Assembly: GCA_022813865.1 (NCBI GenBank) | Contig: JALDZX010000093.1 | Location: 1 to 47,366, forward strand | Length of the DNA: 47,366 bases | From: Xylographa opegraphella | Taxonomy: Eukaryota | Reading direction: 5' to 3' | Shown: piece after piece, positions 34,549 to 46,888 of the stretch | Numbering within the stretch: the first letter of the stretch is position 1 | Layout: every line of letters starts with the position of its first letter | Notes under the pieces: generated by a model | The model's database searches: none | What the model was told of the DNA's origin: nothing | The model's input: only the letters and a program-made list of their open reading frames with translations | Made by a program: the position numbers and the translations under genes

Positions 34549-34738
34549 CCACGGCTGAAAGCTTCTTGTATATTCTGCCCCGCAGGTTGGGTACTTTCAG
34601 CGTCGCAGCGAAATTCTGGGTTTTTCTGTGGCTGAGGTCTGTCTTGATGGGCTCATGGGTTACGGGGTAGTTTTCGGGTCGGTTATCAAGCAACACGGTT
34701 GTACATACGAGCATCGCGTTGCGGAGTGGCGTCAGGAG

Positions 34739-36280
34739 CTAGCTAGCGCGCGCTCTCTCCGCACAAGGCGCGATATGGATATCCAGCACGCAGTGGACGA
34801 CGCCCGGCGCGTACGACTTGACGCGCTCGAGGTGCTCGCAGCGGACGAGACGCGCGGCGTGCGCGGCATCGGGGGGGTTCGTGAGCGCATCGAAGCGAGC
34901 CACAATGGCGGCCTTCCGGCTTTCAATGTCCCCCACCGCGATGTTCTCGTGCGCGTGCACCCATCCGCCCAGCGCCGGGTCGAGCACCCGCACCGCGACC
35001 GGCCAGCTGGGAGCCGAGCTCGGCAGGAAGCCGCAGTTGACGTGCCGCACGGGCGGGACGCGGGTCCGCATGCCGTCCACGCGAGCGCCGGCGCGCTGGT
35101 TGTCTTCCTGGAAGACGAGCAGCCGTTCGTCCCCGTTCCCTTCGGCCTGCCCCACTCCTACACCCTGCCCGTCCTCCTCCTCCCCGCCCAACACGACCCT
35201 CACCCCCCACCCATTCATCCCCGCGCCCCTCCGCAGCCCCTCCACGCTCCACGGATTGATCTCCCACCCCAACACCCTCCCCACCCCGGCCCTCGCATAG
35301 CAAAACGCAAAGTACCCGATCCCGGCATACAGATCGACGGCCGTACACCCCCCCGGCCCGCAGCCCAGCCGCTCAGGCCTCAGCGCGCCCAGCCGCAGCA
35401 GCCGCGCCTTCTCGCGGACATTGCCGCGCGCGAACATGGTGTGCAGCGGGGCCCACGTCTGCTGCACGCCGTGCTGGGCGGCGCGGACCCAGAAGGCGCG
35501 CGCGAAAGCGGCGGCGGACGCGGGCTCGCGGGCGCCGAAGGGGCCGTACAGGGGTGTGAGGGCCGTGGGCGCGCGGAGGGTGTTGAGGGCCGCAGAGGGG
35601 GCGGTGTGGAGGGGGATGGGCGCGTTGAGCGCGATGTGTGTGACGGAGAGGGAGGCGCAGATGTGGGTGTGGAGGGCCGGGAGGTGGGCGGCGAGGGGGC
35701 CGGCGAGGAGGGCGGGCCAGGGGGGGGAGGTGAATGTGCGGGGGGGAAGGAGGAGGAGCGGTGGGTGGATTGTGTAGGTCCAGGGGTGGAGGGCGAGGAG
35801 GCTGGAGATGGGAGGGAGGGTGTGGAGGAGGGGAGCGGGGAGGGTGGAGAGCCAGTGCTGGATGGCGTGGCAGAGGAGGGAGTGGCGGTGCAGTTGTGGG
35901 AGGGCGGGCGGGAGGCTTTCGAGGTCGAGCGCGAGGTGGATGGCTGTGGGGTCTGGCGGGTGGAGAACGCGACTGAGGACGGAGGCGACAGCGTCGAGGA
36001 CGCGCTGGGCGCTAGGGGCGGAGTGCAGTGCGATAGCGTAGGTCGTCGGTATCAAGCAGGCGTCTGGGTGGGGTGTGAAACCCGATTGGAGGAGGTAGTT
36101 CTCCTGCGAGGCGGCGTCGGTGCGGAGAGGGCTGATCTTGCTGCTCTTGTCCAGCTTGCCCCGTAGCTCCAGAGCCGTTTTTATGGTCTTGGTCAGGGGC
36201 TTGGGTACGATGACGCAGAACCTGTATATTTGTGGCGGCGGCGGAACCATGCGCAGAGGACGTTGGTGTTGCTCGGTCAT
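34739..36280 (-). CDS. TRM12: tRNA wybutosine-synthesizing protein 2 (TYW2/TRM12, SAM-dependent aminocarboxypropyl transferase)
   Basis: Motifs QTWAPLHTMFARGNVREKARL, VDLYAGIGYFAFCY, WEINPWSVEGL, VRHVNCGFLPSS, GGWVHAHEN, ERVKSYAPGVVHCVLD. Start uncertain (ATG 36280 or 36250). Confidence 0.88.
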   Translation of the reverse strand: MTEQHQRPLRMVPPPPQIYRFCVIVPKPLTKTIKTALELRGKLDKSSKISPLRTDAASQENYLLQSGFTPHPDACLIPTTYAIALHSAPSAQRVLDAVASVLSRVLHPPDPTAIHLALDLESLPPALPQLHRHSLLCHAIQHWLSTLPAPLLHTLPPISSLLALHPWTYTIHPPLLLLPPRTFTSPPWPALLAGPLAAHLPALHTHICASLSVTHIALNAPIPLHTAPSAALNTLRAPTALTPLYGPFGAREPASAAAFARAFWVRAAQHGVQQTWAPLHTMFARGNVREKARLLRLGALRPERLGCGPGGCTAVDLYAGIGYFAFCYARAGVGRVLGWEINPWSVEGLRRGAGMNGWGVRVVLGGEEEDGQGVGVGQAEGNGDERLLVFQEDNQRAGARVDGMRTRVPPVRHVNCGFLPSSAPSWPVAVRVLDPALGGWVHAHENIAVGDIESRKAAIVARFDALTNPPDAAHAARLVRCEHLERVKSYAPGVVHCVLDIHIAPCAERARAS

Positions 36281-36766
36281 GATTGCTGAGAATGGCACGT
36301 GATGGGCGAAGCCCTAGCCCTGACTTTGATCGAGCGGCTGCAGGGGCGGGATGTATTTATTCGCACCGCGAAGGCACTAAGGAGATGTAGCGAATTCAGT
36401 CTGGATGGGTGTTGTATCTCGGTTTGCGGGACTGACTCGTGTGATCGCTCGCAAAATCGGTTACTGTTTCAGCTGGTAGTCGTGGTTTTGGATTGTCTGG
36501 ATGTCGGGGCTTAAAGGGTTTTCGACCCTGAATTTTTTGTTTCGTGGAGTAATTCGGCTAGGCGAGCTAGGCTACGCGGAACGGCTGGTGTCCAAGGTCT
36601 TGGCATCATCGAATAACGCTAAATCGCCGAATAACCCCCTTTTACATCGACCTTTTCGCTGCCGGCGAATCTACCGATTATATTGAAACTAATCACTAGG
36701 CGCAGGTAATGGCAGCAGGTAACAGTGCATTGCTTAATCACTAAGAAGGTGAAGAGTTCTTCTGGA

Positions 36767-36799
36767 NNNNNNNNNNNNNNNNNNNNNNNNNNNNNNNNN
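36767..36799. other. Assembly gap (33 N)
   Basis: Run of N; true size and content unknown. Confidence 1.
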
Positions 36800-37249
36800 A
36801 CTAAGCTAGGCCTAATCGGCTATAGTAAAGGACCAACAACACAGACTGCTAACGCCCTGATTTTCAACAAATTCCTTAATCCCGCTGTGGTGTTTTATCA
36901 AAGTGTACTCGGCAAAGGTTGTGCCAAGAAGACACAAATCTACCCTAAGGTCGAGCCCGATCGTATATCGGGTGAGCGCCACTTTACCTGTTCTCGTATG
37001 AGTCTGTGATCTTGGCACAATATCTTGCCGTGAAACGGTACAGATTCAAAACGCGGCACCTTGAGCATCCGATAGTGGTAGGCTGCCTCTTGATCAATGT
37101 ACCGTTGTTGATCCAGGTATTGAAAAATAGTCAAATCAAAAAGGTGATTGCAATAGAGACTGCGGAAGTTCGGATAAAGACGCAAGCGAGCGATCATCTT
37201 GTATAGAAATACTCCGTAACGTGATAGCATTCCCCCATGCAGCCCATCA

Positions 37250-38697
37250 TCAAAACCTCAAATAGCTATCAGCATCCTCGTCACTCTCCTCCTCCGAAGC
37301 CGATCGAGCCTCCTCTGAATCCTCGCTGTCGAAAACCAATTGACCAGACCATCGCGCTCTCAGATCATGTGGCAGAGCGTTCCTCTTCCCCTCGTCTTGC
37401 TTCCAAATGCGGATCGGGCCCGTGCCTATGCGGCGGACTTCAAATTTGCGGCTATTCGATTGCTTCATAAGTTCCGTGAGCCGAAGAAGAGTAGCGTGGA
37501 ATCGGCGAAGGAGAGGCTGGTTCTGCTTCTCCCACTCGGCAATCTCGGGCTCCACGTCTCGCACCTGAATGTCGTCGAAGTTGCCTGATTTGTGGTAGGC
37601 GATGATAAAGTTTGGGATTTGGCTAACCCATAGCCGGGGTAGCACTTCGTCCATTTTGATGACTGAGCGTGCGGCGCGGGTCTTGATGTCGAAAATGGCA
37701 GCTTGAGGAATTTGGCGGCCACCAGTTTCGAAGATCAGGTGGGAGGCGTGTTGGTTGGGAGATTTCTCGCTCACAGCAGCGGAATTGAGATCGGACAGGA
37801 GTGAGCCGATCTCTGTGTCCTTGGACGAAGAATCCCGGCCTGGTGACGGACGGCCTGGGCTATTGGCCATATCTGGAAGGTAGCCATCACTTTCGAAGCG
37901 TACATGACATTCAATACCGGCGAAAGAGTACTTGACGAGGCGTTGGTTGGAGACGGAATCTTTCACGCCTTTAGCCCACGTCGTATAGGCTTCCGGGAAG
38001 GTGTGGCCGTACCCATATACACCTGGTATGAGCTCTTGGGGCGAGTTTTCTTTTCGGACCATGAACACGGTATCTCCGATGAGTTCCACTTCGAAGCGGA
38101 ACGTCTTGTCGATCGAGCCTGCAAATCTGAGCAGGTTGCCCATTGTACTTCCACACGCGACTATGTCAGCCATGGAGGGGTCAAAATCAGGCTGCGTTGC
38201 GAAAGCAGCGCGAATGATGGGTTCGGTAGGGTACTTTGCGTAGCGGGCGGCGTTGGGATCTCTGAAGTAGGTGCCGCTATCTTGGTCAAGTTTCGGCACT
38301 GTAGCTGGAGGACTCCAGGCTGGTGGTTCCCCTGCATTGACTCAGCAAAGGAAAGGTACGTGTATTGAAGAGTGAACCTACCTGGGACTAAAATCGTTGG
38401 CTGTTTCCTATTCAGCCAGCTGTAGGATGCAACAAACTCGCAGTCTTCAATTCCTATAGGGTCCGTGACTCGGAGTGAGGACTGCAGATCCTTTGAGATA
38501 ATCTCACCTATGGAATAGGTGGATGGAAAAGCCTTCCAAGCATCATGCTCATGTCCAGCTACAGCCTCGTGATAATGATAGCCGCCTCGCGCTGTGGGTA
38601 GATTGCCCCTTGCGGTACCCATGCCCCTTCCACGACCAAACGGCCTAGCTCTCCAATTACCGCGTCCTATTCTCCGGAAGGAGTTGATCTCATCCAT
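37250..38697 (-). CDS. Putative DXO/Rai1-like PD-(D/E)xK nuclease (~465 aa) with RGG-rich N-terminus; 2 exons
   Basis: ATG 38697 (MDEINSFRRIGRGNWRARPFGRGRG). Intron 38332-38381 joins TILVPG-EPPAWSPP; the spliced length of 1398 nt is in frame. Ordered motifs DIVACGSTMGNLL, YGYGHTFPEAY, RFESDG, FDIKT, RLWVSQIPNFIIAYH resemble the DXO/Rai1 motifs. The gene is well supported; the fold call is inference. Confidence 0.75.
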
Positions 38698-39494
38698 GGC
38701 TTCAGGTCCAGGATCGTCGAGTTCTTGAATCGAAGTCGTGGGACAACTCTGTTTCAACACGGCTTGTGAAAGATACGGTGCGGATATTAAGAGACTCTTT
38801 AAATCATCACACCAAGAAGTCACGGTATGCTGTACAATACAGAAGGCCACAAATCGGGCTCATATGAATGGCTTGTAGCTCCAGCATGTAGCCAGAAGGG
38901 TTGTCTGAACGTGTACTGCGCGCAGCCACGGTCTCCGCCAATGGGAAATGCAGGAGTGCTGCTCAGCGTCTATGCGAGGTTTGTTCGCCATCATTATCAC
39001 ATGCAATCCACCGGATGATGAGACAGTCATGCAGGATAGCGAGCAATCGTGCATCGAACGGTAGCTGCACGGCGAGGTGAGAGGTGGAAGTGTCTTCGCT
39101 AGCGTGGTCGAAGCTTGGCCCACCTTCGGCTTACCGCCATGGATATTGTATGGAGCCTATCAGGCTGCGCTGCAGTGCACATTCGTGCCAGAAAGCCGGC
39201 CATGCTGATGTGTTTCATGTCACACAGCGCTCGATCAAAGTGGGGGATGGCTGGTGGCATCCCGGGTTCAACCCTCCCAGCCCATCTACCCCCATAATCT
39301 GTGAGCCGGCGATGCGTGTCTCTTTGATCTAGTCAGTTGCACGCGTTTTATGTAAAACACTGCTGCTCCTGTGGAGTTGATGGGCATGTGGACGTCTTTC
39401 TCATCTTTCTGCGCTGTTTTTCCGACCCTCTTTCCACGCTAAACTCGACGCTTTTCCTTTATTGCAGTCTGGAACTCCATCCGCTCCTTACTCT

Positions 39495-42400
39495 ATGGCA
39501 TCCGGTGCCTTAAGCCGTAGAGATGACCCCAGAAGCGGCAGACTCTGGGCTCTCTTCAATAAAGTCATCTGCGGTTCCCAGCCTCTCACTAGCTCTCCGG
39601 CCGCGACTCGATTCATCGAAGCTATCTGTGATCAATCTGATCCGGTGAAATGTATTGAGAAACTGATCAGCAGTAGCCATGGGATCTCAGCTTTGCAGTC
39701 CGCGCTTCGGGTCGATGTGTCTTCTCATTTCCTCAACTCCTCTGCTTCTTCCCTCCTGCGATATCTACAAGCCGAGCAATTGACAACCATTTGTGGCGGC
39801 GAGTTTTTACGGCGTATCGTGATCAACATTGTGGATCCTCCCATTTTTTGGAATGCATTGATCAATGCCCAAAAAACCAGTTGCCTGGATGATGAGGCTC
39901 TTCACGGCTTCTCGTGGCTTCTGCTGCAACTTGTTTTACTTCCTGAGAAGAAATCTTCGGAATACTACGGTGCCGCGAGTGATCCGATAATTCAAAAGGC
40001 TCTTCTTGGATCTTTGAACCTTGAGACACGAATCCTAGGCCAGAAATTAAAGCATATTGTCAGCACGGTCAACAATTCTGCACAATCTGAAAACAATGGC
40101 GCTGGTGGCCGTCACGACAACGACTTTGTCGACTTTCGCAAGATTGCTATCTTGCCTACTGCGGACGAGATAGCATCAGCAGATCCGCCTTTCCTCCGTC
40201 GAGCCACGGATATTGATGATCTGCCAGAATCAGCTCGTTTTGCGATTCACATTGACAATCATTTTCGTCTCTATCGGGAAGATATGCTCCGAGACCTACG
40301 GGAGGAGCTTCTTGTCGCGCTCGGTACAAAGACAGGACGTCGAAGGGGGCTGCACATCGATGGGCTGAATCTCGAAGGCATCGAATACAGTGAGCGTCAA
40401 CCGTGGGTACTGTGCCTGCAGTGCATGAACGGCATCCCCCAAATCCCCCAAACAGATGTACCAAAGCGCAAGAAGTTCATCGTCGAAAATCGCAACATTC
40501 TTAAGCACCAGTCTCTTGCTTGCCTCGTTTCCGACGGGGACGTCATCGCGTTGGTTACTCTTCATAGGAATGAAGACCTGCTTGCACAGTACCCACCGAC
40601 TTTATGTGTACAAATTTCAGCCGATTCACAATCTTCTATCACAGCCCTCGTCAAGCTCAAATTGGCAAATAATGTTCAGCTTATCCAGCTGAACACTGCA
40701 TTCTTCGCTTGTGAACCTGTTCTCAAACAGCTACAAGCTATGAAGCGGATGCTCTTAAGCGACCAGATTGTTTCCTGGAAAAAGGGAGATACTTTAGAAT
40801 TAGTCTCGACTCTCGCAACTCCGTCGATTGTGAAATTGGTGGATATGTTACGAGACAACCCATCTAGTGATCTTAAAAATGCCTTGGACCTTTCTAAAGT
40901 GACCGAACTTGACCCATCTCAAGCTGAGTGTTTTCGAGCAGGTCTTATGCAACGTTTAAGCCTAGTACAAGGGCCTCCAGGTTGGGTTTTATAACTGGTC
41001 GTGATTGCACTTCAGCTGGCTTACGGTAATAGGGACCGGAAAATCCTTCATAGGCGCTTTGATTGCAAAGGCAATCTTTCGCTATACATTCAAGAATATC
41101 CTAGTGGTCTGTTACACTAATCACGCTTTAGATCAATTCTTAGAAGATTTACTAAAAATAGGTATACCTTCGAAAGAGATTGTTCGCTTAGGGTCTGCTT
41201 CCAAATCAAGTTTGAGTACCAAGCCTTTGCTTCTGTCAGAACAACAAAGCAGTTACAAACTGAGGCAGGCTGAATGGGAGATTATTAACATGCGTAAGTC
41301 AGAAGTTACTGATGTGGGTAAGAGGCTCCGAACAGCTTTTAAAGACTATCATGCCAAGGCTGCCTCCAAGTCTGACATAATGGAGTATCTTGAGTTTGAA
41401 GGGGCCGATTTCCATGATGCATTTCTTCTACCTGATGACGAGAACGGTATGACGAGAGTCGGCAAAAAGGGGAATGCAGTGAACAAGTACTATCTTCTCG
41501 ATCGTTGGGCTCGTGGTCAGGATGCTGGGATGTATTCCGCTACCGCATCTGAATTTCCCCAAATCTGGAAGATGTCGGCTCTTGAAAGGACTACAGTAAT
41601 GCGACGGTGGAAAGCAGAAATTCTGCGAGAGCGTGCTAGCAGACTCTATGAATATGGGTCTCTGTTTAATAATGCATTGACCGACATAAATGCTCTTTTT
41701 AATGAAAGAGACCGACGCGTTATTCAAGATAAACGTATCATTGGCTGTACAACCACAGCGGCTGCTAAGTACGTACAATATATTCAGTCTGCGTCACTTG
41801 ACGTTCTTTTGGTCGAAGAAGCTGGTGAGATCCTGGAAAGTCACATCATTACTGCCCTTGGACCAGATACCGAGCAGCTAATTCTGATTGGAGACCACAA
41901 ACAGTTGCGGCCAAAAGGTCATTATGATCTTAGCGTCGAGAAAGGTGATGGATATGATCTCAACAGGTCTCTCTTTGAGCGGCTTGTTCTCAAAGGCATC
42001 CCTCATCAAGTGCTCTCTAAGCAGCACCGTATGAGGCCCGAGATCTCGAGCCTTGTTCGCCATCTTACATATCCGGAACTAGTTGACGCGCCCGGTACGA
42101 AATCTCGACCCAATCTAAGAGGCTTCCGGGATAACCTGATCTTCCTCAGTCACAATACTCCGGAAGAAGAGACACAGGACGCTCCCGACTTCAAAGACGG
42201 TAACTCGATGTCATCCAAGAAAAACCTTTTCGAAGCTAAAATGACGCTCAAGTGTATTCGCTACCTGGGTCAACAAGGGTACGGTACAGATCACATGGTT
42301 GTTTTGACACCTTATCTTGGTCAGCTTCGCCTCTTAATGGATGTCCTTGGTAAAGAGAATGATCCCATTTTGAATGATCTAGACTCGTATGACTTAGTTC

Positions 42401-45400
42401 GTGCTGGGTTAATGCCCGCAGCAACCGCACAACTTCAGAAGCGCAGACTTCGAATCTCGACTATTGGTAAGACACGATCTACTATCTCCCCAAAGCGAAG
42501 TCATAGGCTTAAACTTGTTGCCCCTCGCTTTGTTTGCTTGCAAAGTATTGTATTATGTCACAGGAAGGGTAGTGTTACAGACTCCTGAACCGTTTATGCT
42601 AACACCATTAGATAATTATCAAGGTGAAGAGTCCGAAATCGTGGTAATAAGCCTAACGCGAAGCAATCCTCGACACGATATTGGGTTTATGTCATCTCCT
42701 GAACGGCTCAACGTCCTTCTATCCCGCGCCCGCAACGCAATGATTATTATAGGTAATCCGACTACATTTCAGAATGCTCGCAAAGGAAAGGAGCTGTGGC
42801 AATCATTTATGAAGCTGCTAAAGGATGGGTCTCATGTCTATAATGGATTCCCTGTTCGATGCGAAAGGCACCCAGACAGAGAGTCCCTGCTTCAGGTTCC
42901 TGAAGACTTTGATCAGTGTCCGGATGGCGGGTGCAATGAACCTTGGTAAGCAGCTCTTCCTAGGTCACTAAGTTGCTAATGGGGTGTTCTCAGCAATGTC
43001 GCCCTTCAGTGCGGGCTGCATCCTTGTCCGCAGCGATGCCACCAACTCTTCGACCACACCAAAATGCCTTGCGATCAAGTCGTGAGATCAAAGTGCGACC
43101 AAGGCCATGCTCTGACTTGGAGGTGTCACAAGGGGAAGCCTGCTTCCTGCCGTGCATGCGAAAGAGCGAAACAGGACAAAGAAAGAAAGGAGCGCCAGGA
43201 TTTCGAGCGTCAGCAAAAGCGAGAGCAAGAACGGCAAGAGCACACTGCTCAACTAGAAAAGATTGATGACGAGATGAGAAAGATTAGAGAATCCATTGCA
43301 GACCTTCAAGAATCCGAAGAAATGAAGAATACTTTAGCGCAGAAGAAGCGAGACGTAGAAAACGCTCGAGGTTTGGCAGAACGCTTGACGCGGCTCCAGA
43401 TCGAGCATAACGGGGTCTCTGCCACTGTTATCGCTCCTCCGCCCATGGATGAATCTTTGCTTTGCCGGGACAAGGCCACAGAAACCCCAAACAGATCCAG
43501 CGCGGATAGTGTGCAAGCGCCTCTGCTTGGGACATCTCTAGCTGAGCCTACCCAATCGCCTGCTGAGCGTGAGTGGGAACGCCAGAAACGGATGGAAAAT
43601 GTGCTGAACGATTCGATTGACTCACTGATGGAGATGACAGGCTTAGAACAAGTTAAGGCACAGATGTTGACGATCAAGGCAAGAATAGACACAGCATTAA
43701 GACAAAATACAGACATGAAGAAGGAGAGATTTGGCATAGTTCTCTTAGGCAATCCTGGGACAGGCGAGTTTATGTCGGCTACACACGGTGGACAGCTGCT
43801 AATCGCTGTGCAACAGGGAAAACAACTGTAGCGCGCCTGTATGCAAGCTTCCTCACATCACTCGGTGTTTTACCGGGCAGTGAGTTTATTGAGATCACAG
43901 GGTCCCGGCTGGCGAGTGAAGGAGTTGCAAAGGCAAAAGCCCTTGTTGAGACTATGCTAAATGCAGGCGGAGGGGCCTTTTTCCTGGACGAAGCTTACCA
44001 ACTCGCCCTAGGGCATAATTACGGCGGTGCATCAGTTCTTGACTACCTGCTTGCGGAAATCGAGAACCAGGTAGGAAAAATAGTGTTCATTCTTGCGGGA
44101 TATAACAAACAGATGGAAAATTTCTTTGAACACAATCAGGGATTTGATAGTCGCATACCGTATCGTCTTCAGTTTGTGGATTATAATGACCAGGAGCTCC
44201 TTCAGATGCTTGGTCAGCTAATCAAAAAGAAGTACCAGGGTAAAATGAAGCTTGAAGATGGCGCTGCGGGATTATATGCACGAATCGCTGTTCGACGCCT
44301 TGGAAGAGGTCGTGGACGAGAAGGATTTGGCAACGCTCGTGCTCTTCAGAACATGCTAGCTAAAATTTCAGAACGACAGGCAGATCGTTTACACCGTGAA
44401 CGTGTGGCTGGTGTCAAGCCTGACGATTTCGTCCTGACAAAGGAAGATCTTATTGGTCCAGATCCTTCCAAAGCAATCGTGAAAAGCGCGGCATGGAGAG
44501 AAATACAGGATCTGATCGGGCTAAAGATGGTCAAGGAGTCTATTCAGAGCCTATTGGACCGGATTCAAACAAACTATCAGCGCGAACTGTTAGAAAAATC
44601 ACCCATTGAGATCAGTCTCAATCGTGTATTCCTCGGTTCACCAGGAACAGGAAAGACTTCCGTTGGCAAATTCTACGGTCAAATTCTAGCAGATCTTGGT
44701 CTTCTTTCAAACGGCGAAGGTAAGTTGTAGGTCATTCTCGCCTCTTGGTTATTACTAAGCCTCAATCATAGTGGTAACAAAGAATCCATCCGATTTTGTT
44801 GGGAGCGTCTTGGGAGAGTCGGAAAAGAATACGAAGGCGATCTTGAAGTCATCCGAAGGGAAGGTCCTGATCATCGATGAGGCTTATATGCTGTATTCTG
44901 GTGCAAGTGGTGTGGGAAATACGTCGGATCCGTATAAGACAGCTGTGGTTGACACCATCGTCGCTGAGATACAGAGTACTATAGGAGAGGACCGATGTGT
45001 TCTCTTGCTTGGCTACAAGGAGAAGCTAGAGGAAATGTTTCAAAACACCAACCCTGGCTTGTCCAGAAGGTTCCCCTTAGATGACGCGTTCCATTTCGAA
45101 GACTTTGACGACGATCAACTTCGATCGATTCTAGACTTAAAGCTTCGAAAGCAAGACTTGAGTGCAACAAAGGAGGCCAAAGATATCGCCATAGCGATGC
45201 TCGCTCGATCCCGACGCCGCCTTAACTTTGGTAACGCTGGAGAAGTTGAGAACATGATAAGCCATGCCAAAGCAGCATATCAGAAGCGAGACTCGGCCAA
45301 GCCGCAAGTCGAACGTTCTATCAATATTGTCTTTGAGCCACAAGACTTCGATGAGAAGTTTGACAGAACTTCGAATGCATCTGTCAGTTGCAGAGACATA

Positions 45401-46888
45401 TTCAAGGACGTCGTTGGCTGTGACGAAGTGGTCAATAAACTGGAAGGATATATATTGACTGCATCAAACATGAGAGCTCATGGTATAGACCCGCAGGAAC
45501 ACATTCCGTTTAACTTTATCTTCAAAGGCCCTCCAGGTAAGTACAACATCGGCGCCATACTAGTACTTCTCGAGTAACATCCTTTCATGACAGGCACCGG
45601 CAAGACCACTACTGCACGAAAGATGGGCCAGGTCTTTTATAACATGGGATTTCTATCCGCGCCGGACGTTCATGATTGTTCTGCTACAGATTTAGTAGCT
45701 GGGTATGTAGGACAAACAGGCAAAAAGACGATTCAGCTACTAGAGAAGGCGCTAGGACAAGTTTTGTTCATAGACGAAGCTTATCGTCTTGGTGAGGGTG
45801 GCTTTGCAGCAGAGGCTATCAATGAGTTAGTCGACAGTCTTACTAAGCCTCGCTTTATGGGTAAGATCGTTGTTATTCTCGCAGGTTACGAAGGCGATAT
45901 GAACAGATTATTAAGTACCAATCCTGGCTTGTCAAGCCGTTTCGCAGAGGAAGTCATTTTCAGGAACATGGAACCGGCGGCTTGCATGACGTTACTTGAA
46001 CAGAGACTTTTTAAGACAGGAATCACAGTCGAAAAGGCGAAGGCAGACGAAGGGATTCCTGTAGTTATTGAATTGTTCAAGGAGCTGTCAGATCTTCCTG
46101 GATGGGGAAATGGCCGCGATGTGCAAACTTTGGCGAAAACGATCTCGGGTGCAACGTTTCGGTCTGCTAATGGTGCGGAAGTCGTGCTGTCCTTATCCAT
46201 CGAGAAATTAATCGGATACCTCCGGGACTTTCTAGCGGAACGGAGAGCTCGTACGGTCATGACCACACCAAAGATGATACATAATGAGAGCATATCTAAA
46301 GCTGCACCGGAAATGGCACGTGACGCGCCATCCGCAACCGCACTGCGAACCCTGCAGTCCACCAAGTCTGCAGAACCCGAGATTCTCATGCCAGAAGTGC
46401 TTCCTCATATAGCTGTACCAGCTTCCACAACAGCAGACGAACGGGACGATGGTGTCTCGGACGCTATCTGGGCCCAGCTTCAGGCTGACAAAGCTGCGCA
46501 AGAGTATATCGAACAACAGCAAGCCATCGCGATTGCTACTGCTAAGGCACAGGCTCAATCGGATAAGCTGCAAGAAGAAGCTCTGCAGCGAGATGCGGCG
46601 AACCTAGCAGCACAGAGAGTCCGAGACGAAGAAGCTCATGAGCTGAAACGTAAGCACGAGGAAGCAAGATTGAAATACATCGCGGCGCAACGAGCGCGAG
46701 AGGAGGCGGAAGCACAGCTTGCCAGAGTGCGAGAAGAGGCTGAACGGAGGCGAAAGGAGGAAGCGAAAGCGCAGCAGAAGCTGAGAGACATGGGCGTTTG
46801 CGTGGCGGGTTTTCGGTGGATCAAGCAGGCTGAGGGATATCGTTGTGCGGGTGGCTCGCACTTTGTATCTAACGAACAGTTGAGATAA
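39495..46888 (+). CDS. ZNFX1-like SF1 (Upf1-like) helicase / NFX1-type Zn finger / triple CbbX-SpoVK-type AAA+ fusion (~2328 aa); 7 exons
   Basis: Exons 39495-40980, 41033-42466, 42612-42945, 42994-43763, 43817-44719, 44772-45536, 45594-46888 total 6987 nt, in frame. Helicase motifs GRHDND..DFR.I.ILPT, QGPPGTGKS, CYTNHALDQFLE, VEEAGE, LIGDHKQLRP, SLFERL, QHRMRPEI, LTPYLGQ, TIDNYQGEE, RLNVLLSRAR. Zn finger C..LQCGLHPCPQRCH. AAA modules GNPGTGKT/FLDEAY, GSPGTGKT/IIDEAY, GPPGTGKT/FIDEAY, each followed by LxGY, NxG.xxR and GN[AG] motifs. Confidence 0.9.

Follow-up and report, generated by a model that had tools for sequence, protein, structure and literature searches.

The DNA analysed here is a stretch of 47,366 nucleotides from the lichen-forming ascomycete Xylographa opegraphella (GenBank assembly GCA_022813865.1, contig JALDZX010000093.1, positions 1 to 47,366 of the forward strand; in the following called the window), which carries close to its right end two genes diverging from a common spacer (Table 1). 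The smaller one encodes a protein (P0001) with a predicted DXO/Rai1 fold, the larger one a giant protein (P0121), in which a ZNFX1-type helicase is joined to three AAA+ modules; the X. opegraphella contig is their source, both products being 100% identical to deposited proteins of this fungus. Together they make up a two-gene module, transcribed divergently and conserved in filamentous ascomycetes. The initial annotation of this DNA had described two intact genes with starts at 38697 and 39495 and a region of about 800 bp between them, and had placed the end of the giant gene at 46888; all of this was confirmed, the end coordinate by an in-frame stop codon. Joining the seven exons up to 46849 gives exactly the deposited P0121 of 2316 amino acids (aa), which is flagged as partial, and the frame stays open for 12 codons beyond this position. 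Since these additional codons complete a C-terminal motif conserved in the family, the true product should comprise about 2328 aa and the deposited protein lack a short stretch at the C-terminal end. Behind the stop of the giant gene, 478 bp remain to the end of the contig.

Table 1 Coordinates of the gene pair, of the regions recognised in the giant protein and of the scaffold gap in the window
Feature	Position	Strand	Remarks
Small gene, predicted DXO/Rai1 fold	37250..38697	-	465 aa, identical to deposited P0001
Small gene, exon 1	38697-38382	-	ATG at 38697
Small gene, intron	38381-38332	-	50 nt, GT..AG
Small gene, exon 2	38331-37250	-	stop included (37250-37252)
Divergent spacer	38698..39494		797 bp separating the two start codons; presumed bidirectional promoter
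Giant gene	39495..46888	+	seven exons; ATG at 39495; stop 46886-46888
Giant gene, exons 1-4	39495-40980, 41033-42466, 42612-42945, 42994-43763	+	
Giant gene, exons 5-7	43817-44719, 44772-45536, 45594-46888	+	deposited model: to 46849
Giant, N-terminal region	39495..40980	+	aa 1-495; no Pfam family
Giant, superfamily 1 (SF1) helicase core	40908..42760	+	aa 472-1023; Upf1-like, ZNFX1-type; two introns within
Giant, Cys/His-rich region	42860..43159 (approximate)	+	aa ~1057-1140; charged coiled-coil-like linker after it
Giant, AAA+ module 1	43625..44451	+	aa ~1296-1553; CbbX/SpoVK type, AAA_lid_6 lid
Giant, AAA+ module 2	44530..45349	+	aa ~1580-1835; AAA_lid_6 lid
Giant, AAA+ module 3	45401..45991	+	aa ~1853-2030 (Pfam AAA 1892-2020)
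Giant, C-terminal Cys/Gly motif	46787..46888	+	MGVCxAGFRWIKQxxGYRCAGGSHFVSxxQL; after a charged coiled-coil-like stretch; no Pfam family
Scaffold gap	36767-36799		33 N; outside the gene pair

When public metagenome contigs were scanned with an alignment of the small-protein family, 144 relatives came up; the analysis used the best 80 loci, which were searched with P0121 (tblastn, E ≤ 1e-5). Dereplication at no less than 90% nucleotide identity of the small gene left 49 clusters, 36 of them testable with at least 1500 bp upstream. Conserved adjacency and orientation across fungal genomes, the check which the initial annotation had called for, is what we observed: in 32 of the 36 testable clusters the giant is the immediate upstream neighbour, encoded by the opposite strand and with its N-terminus nearest. 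The remaining 13 clusters, having less than 1500 bp upstream, were set aside, and the start of the giant is still visible in two of them. Such head-to-head adjacency is far beyond chance. The ends of the tblastn matches of the two genes are 358-1078 bp apart (median 681; 34 related loci and the window), a match-to-match distance that may include unaligned N-terminal coding sequence, and in the sister species Xylographa soralifera the two genes bear consecutive locus tags on one contig. Judged by the nearest named homologue, and hence approximately, some of the loci can be assigned to relatives of Leotiomycetes, Eurotiomycetes, Dothideomycetes and Lecanoromycetes. Outside the pair, the most widely common family of flanking open reading frames (ORFs) was encountered at 4 of 38 representative loci and all others at 2 loci; no link to an RNA-dependent RNA polymerase was seen among the flanking ORFs of these 38 loci. 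From one class of filamentous ascomycetes to another, genes have been strongly reshuffled, and as the adjacency has been kept despite this, selection appears to act on the pair itself, most readily by way of shared regulation, joint function, or both.

Variation of the arrangement was also found. Two of the 32 paired clusters hold a variant partner only, which lacks the helicase part in one (L019) and is reduced to residues 1-519 in the other (L062). The L019 partner (L019:5596-9236) consists of the first ~75 residues, a coiled coil and three AAA modules, and stands head-to-head with a DXO-like gene; it could be either a real short form or a deletion. Another of the 32 clusters is mixed: intact pairs (L063-L066) occur in it together with one solo copy (L060) and with copies accompanied by a giant fragment (L070, L074). 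In L070 (L070:2051-3631, L070:6513-7121) and L074, near-identical extra DXO-like copies occur with a 95-residue fragment of the giant only, and those of L070 adjoin a DDE_1 transposase and an ankyrin-repeat ORF, which suggests a transposon-associated duplication of part of the module. Related ORFs are present at two loci without the giant (L009:12697-13833 and L060:318-965); the one in L009 has a SIR2 domain (8e-23), and L009 also carries an SNF2 fragment upstream.

In the spacers, the 8-mer CAAGGCTG, often as CTCAGCCTTG, was found in either orientation in 14 of 35 cases (L014, L015, L021, L029, L033, L034, L038, L044, L045, L049-L051, L062, L067), the maximum being 8 in 30 shuffles, and in 12 of the 14 it is located ~200-360 nt from the giant start. 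It may be a putative regulator binding site in some lineages. As part of the X. opegraphella locus it was rejected, the spacer of the window being devoid of it.

The identity of the small protein emerges from its predicted structure. P0001 matched no Pfam family even at E ≤ 10, no NCBIfam and no PADLOC model, and neither phmmer nor a profile of 40 family sequences retrieved anything, DXO/Rai1 included, from among all PDB sequences. The family is large: a word-indexed search returned 817 relatives, all named ones belonging to Pezizomycotina, and an exhaustive profile search 2895 representative clusters at E ≤ 1e-3 (893 at E ≤ 1e-30). In UniRef and several genome projects, relatives are annotated as "geranylgeranyl pyrophosphate synthetase"; this name is a mislabel, and no result supports it. 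An AlphaFold2 model of P0001 built on a 40-sequence alignment (predicted local distance difference test, pLDDT, 77.6; predicted template-modelling score, pTM, 0.76) is confident over the folded core (aa ~51-440), which is preceded by a disordered, RG-rich stretch (aa 1-50), holds a disordered insert (264-293) and is followed by an acidic tail. Comparing this model with the PDB by Foldseek gave solely Rai1, DXO and Dxo1 through rank 28 of the matches listed (E 2e-13 to 1e-10, best probability 1.0), and then eIF3d cap-binding domains (1e-9 to 1e-10). A structural search against 48,161 chains with VIA-align placed Arabidopsis DXO1 (AtDXO1) at Z 25.9 (298 residues aligned, root-mean-square deviation 3.4), Rai1 proteins at 23.6-25.2, mouse DXO at 24.0 and Kluyveromyces lactis Dxo1 at 20.5, so that the DXO/Rai1 proteins span Z 20.5-25.9 with 271-313 aligned residues and deviations of 3.4-4.4. 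eIF3d followed with Z 15-17 and the best unrelated chain with 4.9; RecE, lambda exonuclease and Cas4 appeared as weak matches (Z 3.6-4.9). Outside its own family, the protein-language-model neighbours of P0001 are a nematode RAI1 cluster (0.89) and eIF3d (0.82). The predicted fold thus makes the small protein a sequence-divergent member of the DXO/Rai1 structural family; the DXO/Rai1-like call of the initial annotation, reached from the letters alone, was right at the fold level, although sequence profiles see nothing.

Conservation of single residues, counted over 120 family members, is in line with an enzyme. D254, K322, R198 and H215 are kept in all 120, Q343 in 119, D320 in 118, E219 in 112 and E252 in 103, and the conserved residues are placed on one helix and two consecutive strands of the model. 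DXO/Rai1 proteins coordinate their metal ions by the motifs GxxxE, ExD and ExK, and the order E219...E252-x-D254...D320-x-K322 fits a GxxxE / ExD / (D/E)xK layout, by which these residues would be equivalent to the DXO/Rai1 metal site. As modelled, the small protein is most likely active as a metal-dependent PD-(D/E)XK-type enzyme on RNA 5' ends. An RG/RGG-rich N-terminus is found in many relatives of P0001 as well, and its composition in P0001 would fit RNA binding. The C-terminus of many family members is formed by a Cys-rich tail (…DFTACSxxxCGYCGHCSY), in place of which P0001 and its close relatives have the acidic tail with …DxYL(K/R/N)F. A search for fusions returned two longer proteins containing the DXO-like domain, neither of them fused to a helicase: a cytochrome P450 chimera, discarded as probably a merged gene model, and a Colletotrichum protein of 834 aa, which bears the name '3'-5' exonuclease' and gave no Pfam match. 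Pattern scans of viral contigs and prokaryotic genomes, which detect only relatives keeping two short motifs, found no relative of the small protein.

Regarding the giant, the initial annotation had recognised a ZNFX1-type helicase and a triple AAA part, and both assignments hold. The helicase core is matched by the Pfam families AAA_11 (2.6e-28) and AAA_12 (2.2e-37), contains the Walker A sequence GPPGTGKS and the motif II sequence EEAGE, and among PDB sequences finds human ZNFX1 first (9q9z_A, E 1.5e-47), followed by Aquarius (1e-15) and UPF1 (1e-10); the model of MkoA, from the bacterial Mokosh defence system, matches it at 4.8e-68. The relationship to ZNFX1 extends into the region before the helicase, aa 212-496 being homologous to residues 418-709 of the human protein (9q9z_A, E 4.2e-9), and directly ahead of it the motif GGRHDNDF (aa 204-211) shows no or hardly any variation among 33 aligned full-length giants, the set to which the following conservation values also refer. 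Behind the helicase, conserved Cys/His columns run from C1057 to C1140 (including CGLHPCPQRCH) at the position of the NFX1-type zinc fingers of ZNFX1; no Pfam zinc-finger model matched this region. Pfam recognises three AAA domains and two AAA_lid_6 lids further on, and against PDB sequences the modules match CbbX (2.3e-30) and EccA1 (8e-24). The SpoVK, CbbX and EccA models of NCBIfam (TIGR02881, TIGR02880, TIGR03922) each match three stretches, with totals below the equivalog cut-offs. The Walker A motifs of module 1 (G1337-T1345, 33 of 33), module 2 (G1615-T1622) and module 3 (G1895-T1902) are invariant, as are D1958/E1959 of module 3, while D1399/E1400 of module 1 and D1678/E1679 of module 2 are kept in at least 90% of giants. 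Because Walker A and motif II of the helicase and the Walker A/B pairs of all three AAA modules are (nearly) invariant among these relatives, all four NTPase sites are probably active. Many Pezizomycotina possess giants with this architecture, as do Basidiomycota (Mycena, Armillaria, Athelia). Under the name of the whitefly Bemisia tabaci, a predicted protein is deposited that is a full-length giant (P0201; 55% identity across the helicase exon); it may stem from fungal contamination or gene transfer.

Hints of expression come from two sources. One wood-decay metatranscriptome contained 7% of the sampled words and four contigs (192-345 nt, 95-100% identity) covering 37305-37702 of the small gene and 45973-46311 and 46657-46883 in the 3' part of the giant gene. 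More informative is an RNA-seq study of Cryphonectria parasitica, in which mutants in the mitogen-activated protein kinase (MAPK) pathway for cell-wall integrity, delta-CpBck1 and delta-CpSlt2, were compared with wild type by log2 fold change (log2FC) (PMC6530638). Its gene lists include two consecutively numbered models that bear the names of the two families: JGI 342243, a 'putative geranylgeranyl pyrophosphate synthetase protein' (log2FC 5.92 in delta-CpBck1, 6.19 in delta-CpSlt2), and JGI 342244, 'putative aaa family' (5.74 and 5.41), which stand within the ten or so strongest-induced genes, at about 50-fold; dcl2 (JGI 276559 DCL2, 2.49 and 2.74) is induced along with them (PMC6530638). 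Also on the delta-CpBck1 list are a gene resembling argonaute, several members of the Sir2 family, HET and NACHT genes and an FtsJ-like methyltransferase (5.90), and further co-induced genes are a second 'putative aaa family' member (345956, 6.04), an adenine phosphoribosyltransferase (5.51) and RAD50 and RAD5-like genes; 342244 is in addition marked as affected by the hypovirus CHV1 and validated by quantitative reverse-transcription PCR (PMC6530638). In the same fungus, DCL2 is described as transcriptionally inducing many host genes upon virus infection, some of which act as a further layer of defence (PMC11194562).

The genes left of the scaffold gap look housekeeping (kinesin, ERCC4, BCD1, DENN, glutamine synthetase). 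The initial annotation had regarded the pair as set off from them by a gap and decayed sequence; the gap is there, whereas decay is not supported: 36000-37250 holds only short ORFs at lower GC content, but its indices of repeat-induced point mutation are not elevated (TpA/ApT 0.87). Around the gap (36601-37200) the GC content is 0.37-0.47 and no long ORF is present. Further left, the block 34559-36313 is very GC-rich (0.69-0.77) with long ORFs on both strands, 34559-36166 (+) and 34739-36313 (-), of which the minus ORF alone gives a weak match to the TRM5/TYW2 methyltransferase (5.4e-5, below the Pfam cut-off).

The best explanation of the whole, to which we would give about an even chance, is that the DXO-like enzyme and the ZNFX1-AAA giant are expressed together and surveil and clear aberrant or foreign RNA. 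The ZNFX1 family includes Caenorhabditis elegans ZNFX-1, Schizosaccharomyces pombe Hrr1 and Neurospora SAD-3; the worm and fission-yeast proteins have roles in small-RNA pathways. Human ZNFX1 has been described as a sensor of double-stranded RNA viruses (PMC11574294), and DXO/Rai1 enzymes are described in the literature as removing incomplete or metabolite caps and 5' phosphates and as degrading RNA in 5'-3' direction. By analogy with these functions, the giant would recognise RNA and the small enzyme would process its 5' end. The data show the gene models, the fold and domain assignments, the conservation of catalytic-type residues and that of the head-to-head linkage; what we infer is that the substrate is RNA, that the chemistry concerns 5' ends, that the two proteins cooperate physically and that they have an antiviral or surveillance role. 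In such a scheme, the shared spacer of ~0.4-1.1 kb would co-express both genes within a programme responding to stress or virus, to which genes of RNA interference (RNAi) also belong. The giant would bind, unwind or remodel aberrant or foreign RNA or ribonucleoprotein (RNP), the helicase serving recognition and translocation and the three AAA+ modules forming a remodelling motor, possibly, as a speculation, a ring of six modules in a dimer. The DXO-like enzyme would then strip 5' ends that are non-canonical or lack protection (5'-ppp or pp, metabolite caps), committing the RNA to decay. FtsJ-type enzymes include cap 2'-O-methyltransferases, and the co-induced FtsJ-like methyltransferase would fit this 5'-end theme. 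A bolder reading, possible but doubtful in our eyes, would see in the pair an ancient innate RNA-immunity module occurring throughout Pezizomycotina, co-regulated with Dicer and Argonaute, whose ZNFX1-type sensor helicase, equipped with its own AAA+ motor, would capture uncapped or foreign RNA, for example mycovirus or retroelement RNA, and pass its 5' end to the DXO-fold nuclease.

With DXO, Rai1 and Dxo1 (Pfam RAI1, PF08652), P0001 shares by its model the fold over ~300 residues, a folded part of ~350-400 residues and, putatively, an acidic/lysine set in the order E...ExD...(D/E)xK, but no detectable sequence similarity, and it differs from them by the RG-rich extension, the disordered insert of ~30 residues and the acidic tail; its family-specific invariant motifs GxGHxFPE, SxxHQR and FDxKTR also differ from the motifs of DXO. 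Unlike Rai1, which is partnered with Rat1/Xrn2, it is encoded next to a helicase gene. One member of the DXO/Rai1 family per eukaryote is described as typical (PMC11571810). The cap-binding domain of eIF3d belongs to the same fold class (Z 15-17), yet it scores lower than the enzymes, and P0001 keeps catalytic-type residues and has no match to the Pfam family eIF-3_zeta. Human ZNFX1 and the giant are homologous in the helicase core and the ~290 residues before it, and a Cys/His-rich region follows the helicase of the giant, whereas the three CbbX-type AAA+ modules and the C-terminal Cys/Gly motif are additions of the giant relative to the ZNFX1 family. Each of these modules in turn resembles CbbX, EccA1 and the corresponding NCBIfam models; in contrast to CbbX, SpoVK and EccA, the three are united in one chain and fused to a helicase, and their scores stay below the equivalog cut-offs.

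Two defence systems offer parallels in their logic. Mokosh is a bacterial defence system consisting of the helicase MkoA and a phospholipase D (PLD) nuclease, which the fungal pair resembles in the strength of the MkoA match and in joining a large RNA-type helicase to a putative nuclease. The fungal partner, however, has a predicted DXO fold instead of PLD and no PADLOC match, and the genes form a eukaryotic divergent pair, not an operon; with a partner lacking the PLD fold and a fungus as host, the pair was not counted as Mokosh. In C. elegans, the DXO-family protein EOL-1 and the RIG-I-like helicase DRH-1 cooperate in a response that is antiviral or enhances RNAi (PMC7735679). This combination of a DXO-family protein with an RNA-sensing helicase is similar to the one proposed here, and the language-model neighbour of P0001 nearest outside its own family is a nematode RAI1 cluster; nevertheless, a superfamily 2 RIG-I-like helicase stands there against an SF1 ZNFX1-like one here, so that the analogy is a functional one only. 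To our knowledge, the nematode EOL-1 and DRH-1 genes are not linked.

Several observations weigh against the proposed surveillance function or against parts of it. A nearby giant is missing in 4 of the 36 testable clusters (the L009 group, L040, L057 and L020, the last with an upstream flank of 1530 bp). A quick tree of the small protein by maximum likelihood requires a separate change for each of the four confirmed solo copies, of which three adjoin a paired relative and L009 is left unresolved. The solo copies being scattered in the tree and mostly standing beside paired relatives, which counts in favour of the linkage, we regard pairing as ancestral and the solo copies as secondary. Basidiomycota possess giants, yet there is no basidiomycete among the 120 listed organism-named relatives of the small protein, so the giant may function without a DXO-like partner. 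The giants are highly conserved, with a mean column identity of 55% over 33 sequences, and together with the 2895 clusters of the small protein this looks more like a core cellular function than like a fast-evolving, patchy immune gene; family size and conservation agree with a conserved core module no less than with a defence island of patchy occurrence. The membership of the small protein in the DXO/Rai1 family rests on predicted structure, RAI1 being detected by no sequence profile, the motif equivalences derive from order and placement instead of a residue-level superposition, and eIF3d has the same fold and is nevertheless a cap binder, not a nuclease. The results do not separate RNA from DNA as the substrate. 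As to expression, the four metatranscriptome contigs are short and few and could derive from library DNA; 342243 and 342244 are equated with the two families by annotation name and consecutive identifiers only, their induction was seen in MAPK mutants, and 342244 is flagged as virus-affected, in one direction or the other.

Part of these observations would be accounted for if the two proteins were a housekeeping pair for RNA processing or quality control (5'-end maturation of rRNA, snoRNA or mRNA, remodelling of RNPs) with no role in immunity, an explanation which we hold to be rather unlikely. Both families are large and strongly conserved, the pair is present in most sampled lineages, ordinary genes lie beyond the gap in the window, and a shared promoter would serve the stoichiometry of the two products; DXO/Rai1/Dxo1 enzymes are moreover reported to act in rRNA maturation and general 5'-end quality control (PMC9014881, PMC11571810). 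A housekeeping pair would hardly be expected, however, to be near-silent in wild type relative to mutants and to be induced ~50-fold with dcl2, argonaute, Sir2 and HET genes, as the like-named C. parasitica pair is, nor to exist in duplicated, solo and transposase-flanked copies, and the helicase is closest to ZNFX1 and bacterial MkoA, both of them linked to defence. That the adjacency is coincidental or an artefact of assembly or annotation, the genes being functionally unrelated, has next to no probability: head-to-head pairs are common in compact fungal genomes and a scaffold gap is nearby, but this gap is outside the pair, the sister species has the consecutive locus tags, and the same arrangement recurs in 32 of 36 independent clusters while all other flanking genes differ.

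Two further explanations, both improbable and to about the same degree, concern what the proteins do at the molecular level. The DXO-fold protein might be a non-nuclease adaptor that binds 5' ends or caps like eIF3d and recruits or regulates the helicase-AAA+ machine, since eIF3d matches the model (Z 15-17, Foldseek E 1e-9 to 1e-10) and since 17 of the 120 members have another residue in place of E252 and 8 in place of E219; the invariance of D254 and K322 and the retention of D320 in 118 of 120 are nonetheless a pattern typical of active PD-(D/E)XK enzymes, and the DXO/Rai1 enzymes outscore eIF3d (Z 20.5-25.9 against 15-17). Alternatively, a PD-(D/E)XK DNA nuclease and a DNA-translocating SF1 helicase might act on DNA or DNA-RNA hybrids, as in transposons, foreign DNA or replication and repair stress. 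PD-(D/E)XK is chiefly a fold of DNA nucleases, RecE, lambda exonuclease and Cas4 are among the weak structural matches (Z 3.6-4.9), RAD50 and RAD5-like genes are in the co-induced C. parasitica list, and transposase genes lie beside broken copies at some loci. DXO, Rai1 and eIF3d, on the other hand, all handle RNA 5' ends and score ~15-20 Z units above the DNA nucleases, the nearest helicases (ZNFX1, Aquarius, UPF1) are RNA helicases, and the N-terminus of the small protein is RG-rich.

Literature searches found no paper that describes the pair, calls the 'geranylgeranyl pyrophosphate synthetase' family DXO-fold or characterises fungal ZNFX1-AAA giants; the conserved module and its cryptic DXO lineage appear to be undescribed, while their parts belong to known superfamilies. 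Recognising the fold would correct the "geranylgeranyl pyrophosphate synthetase" misannotation across thousands of fungal proteins and would add a second DXO-fold lineage to the fungi. Conserved adjacency would here, moreover, predict a machine of two proteins, as it does in bacterial defence islands but rarely in eukaryotes. Fungal antiviral defence is understood almost wholly through RNAi, and if surveillance of aberrant or foreign RNA by the pair is true, it would supply a concrete, testable effector for the Dicer-induced second layer of defence in C. parasitica. Should even the more tentative RNA-immunity reading prove true, the pair would correspond in fungi to animal ZNFX1 and to nematode DRH-1/EOL-1 and be akin in mechanism to Mokosh, and RNA defence by a helicase plus a nuclease would be conserved across the domains of life.

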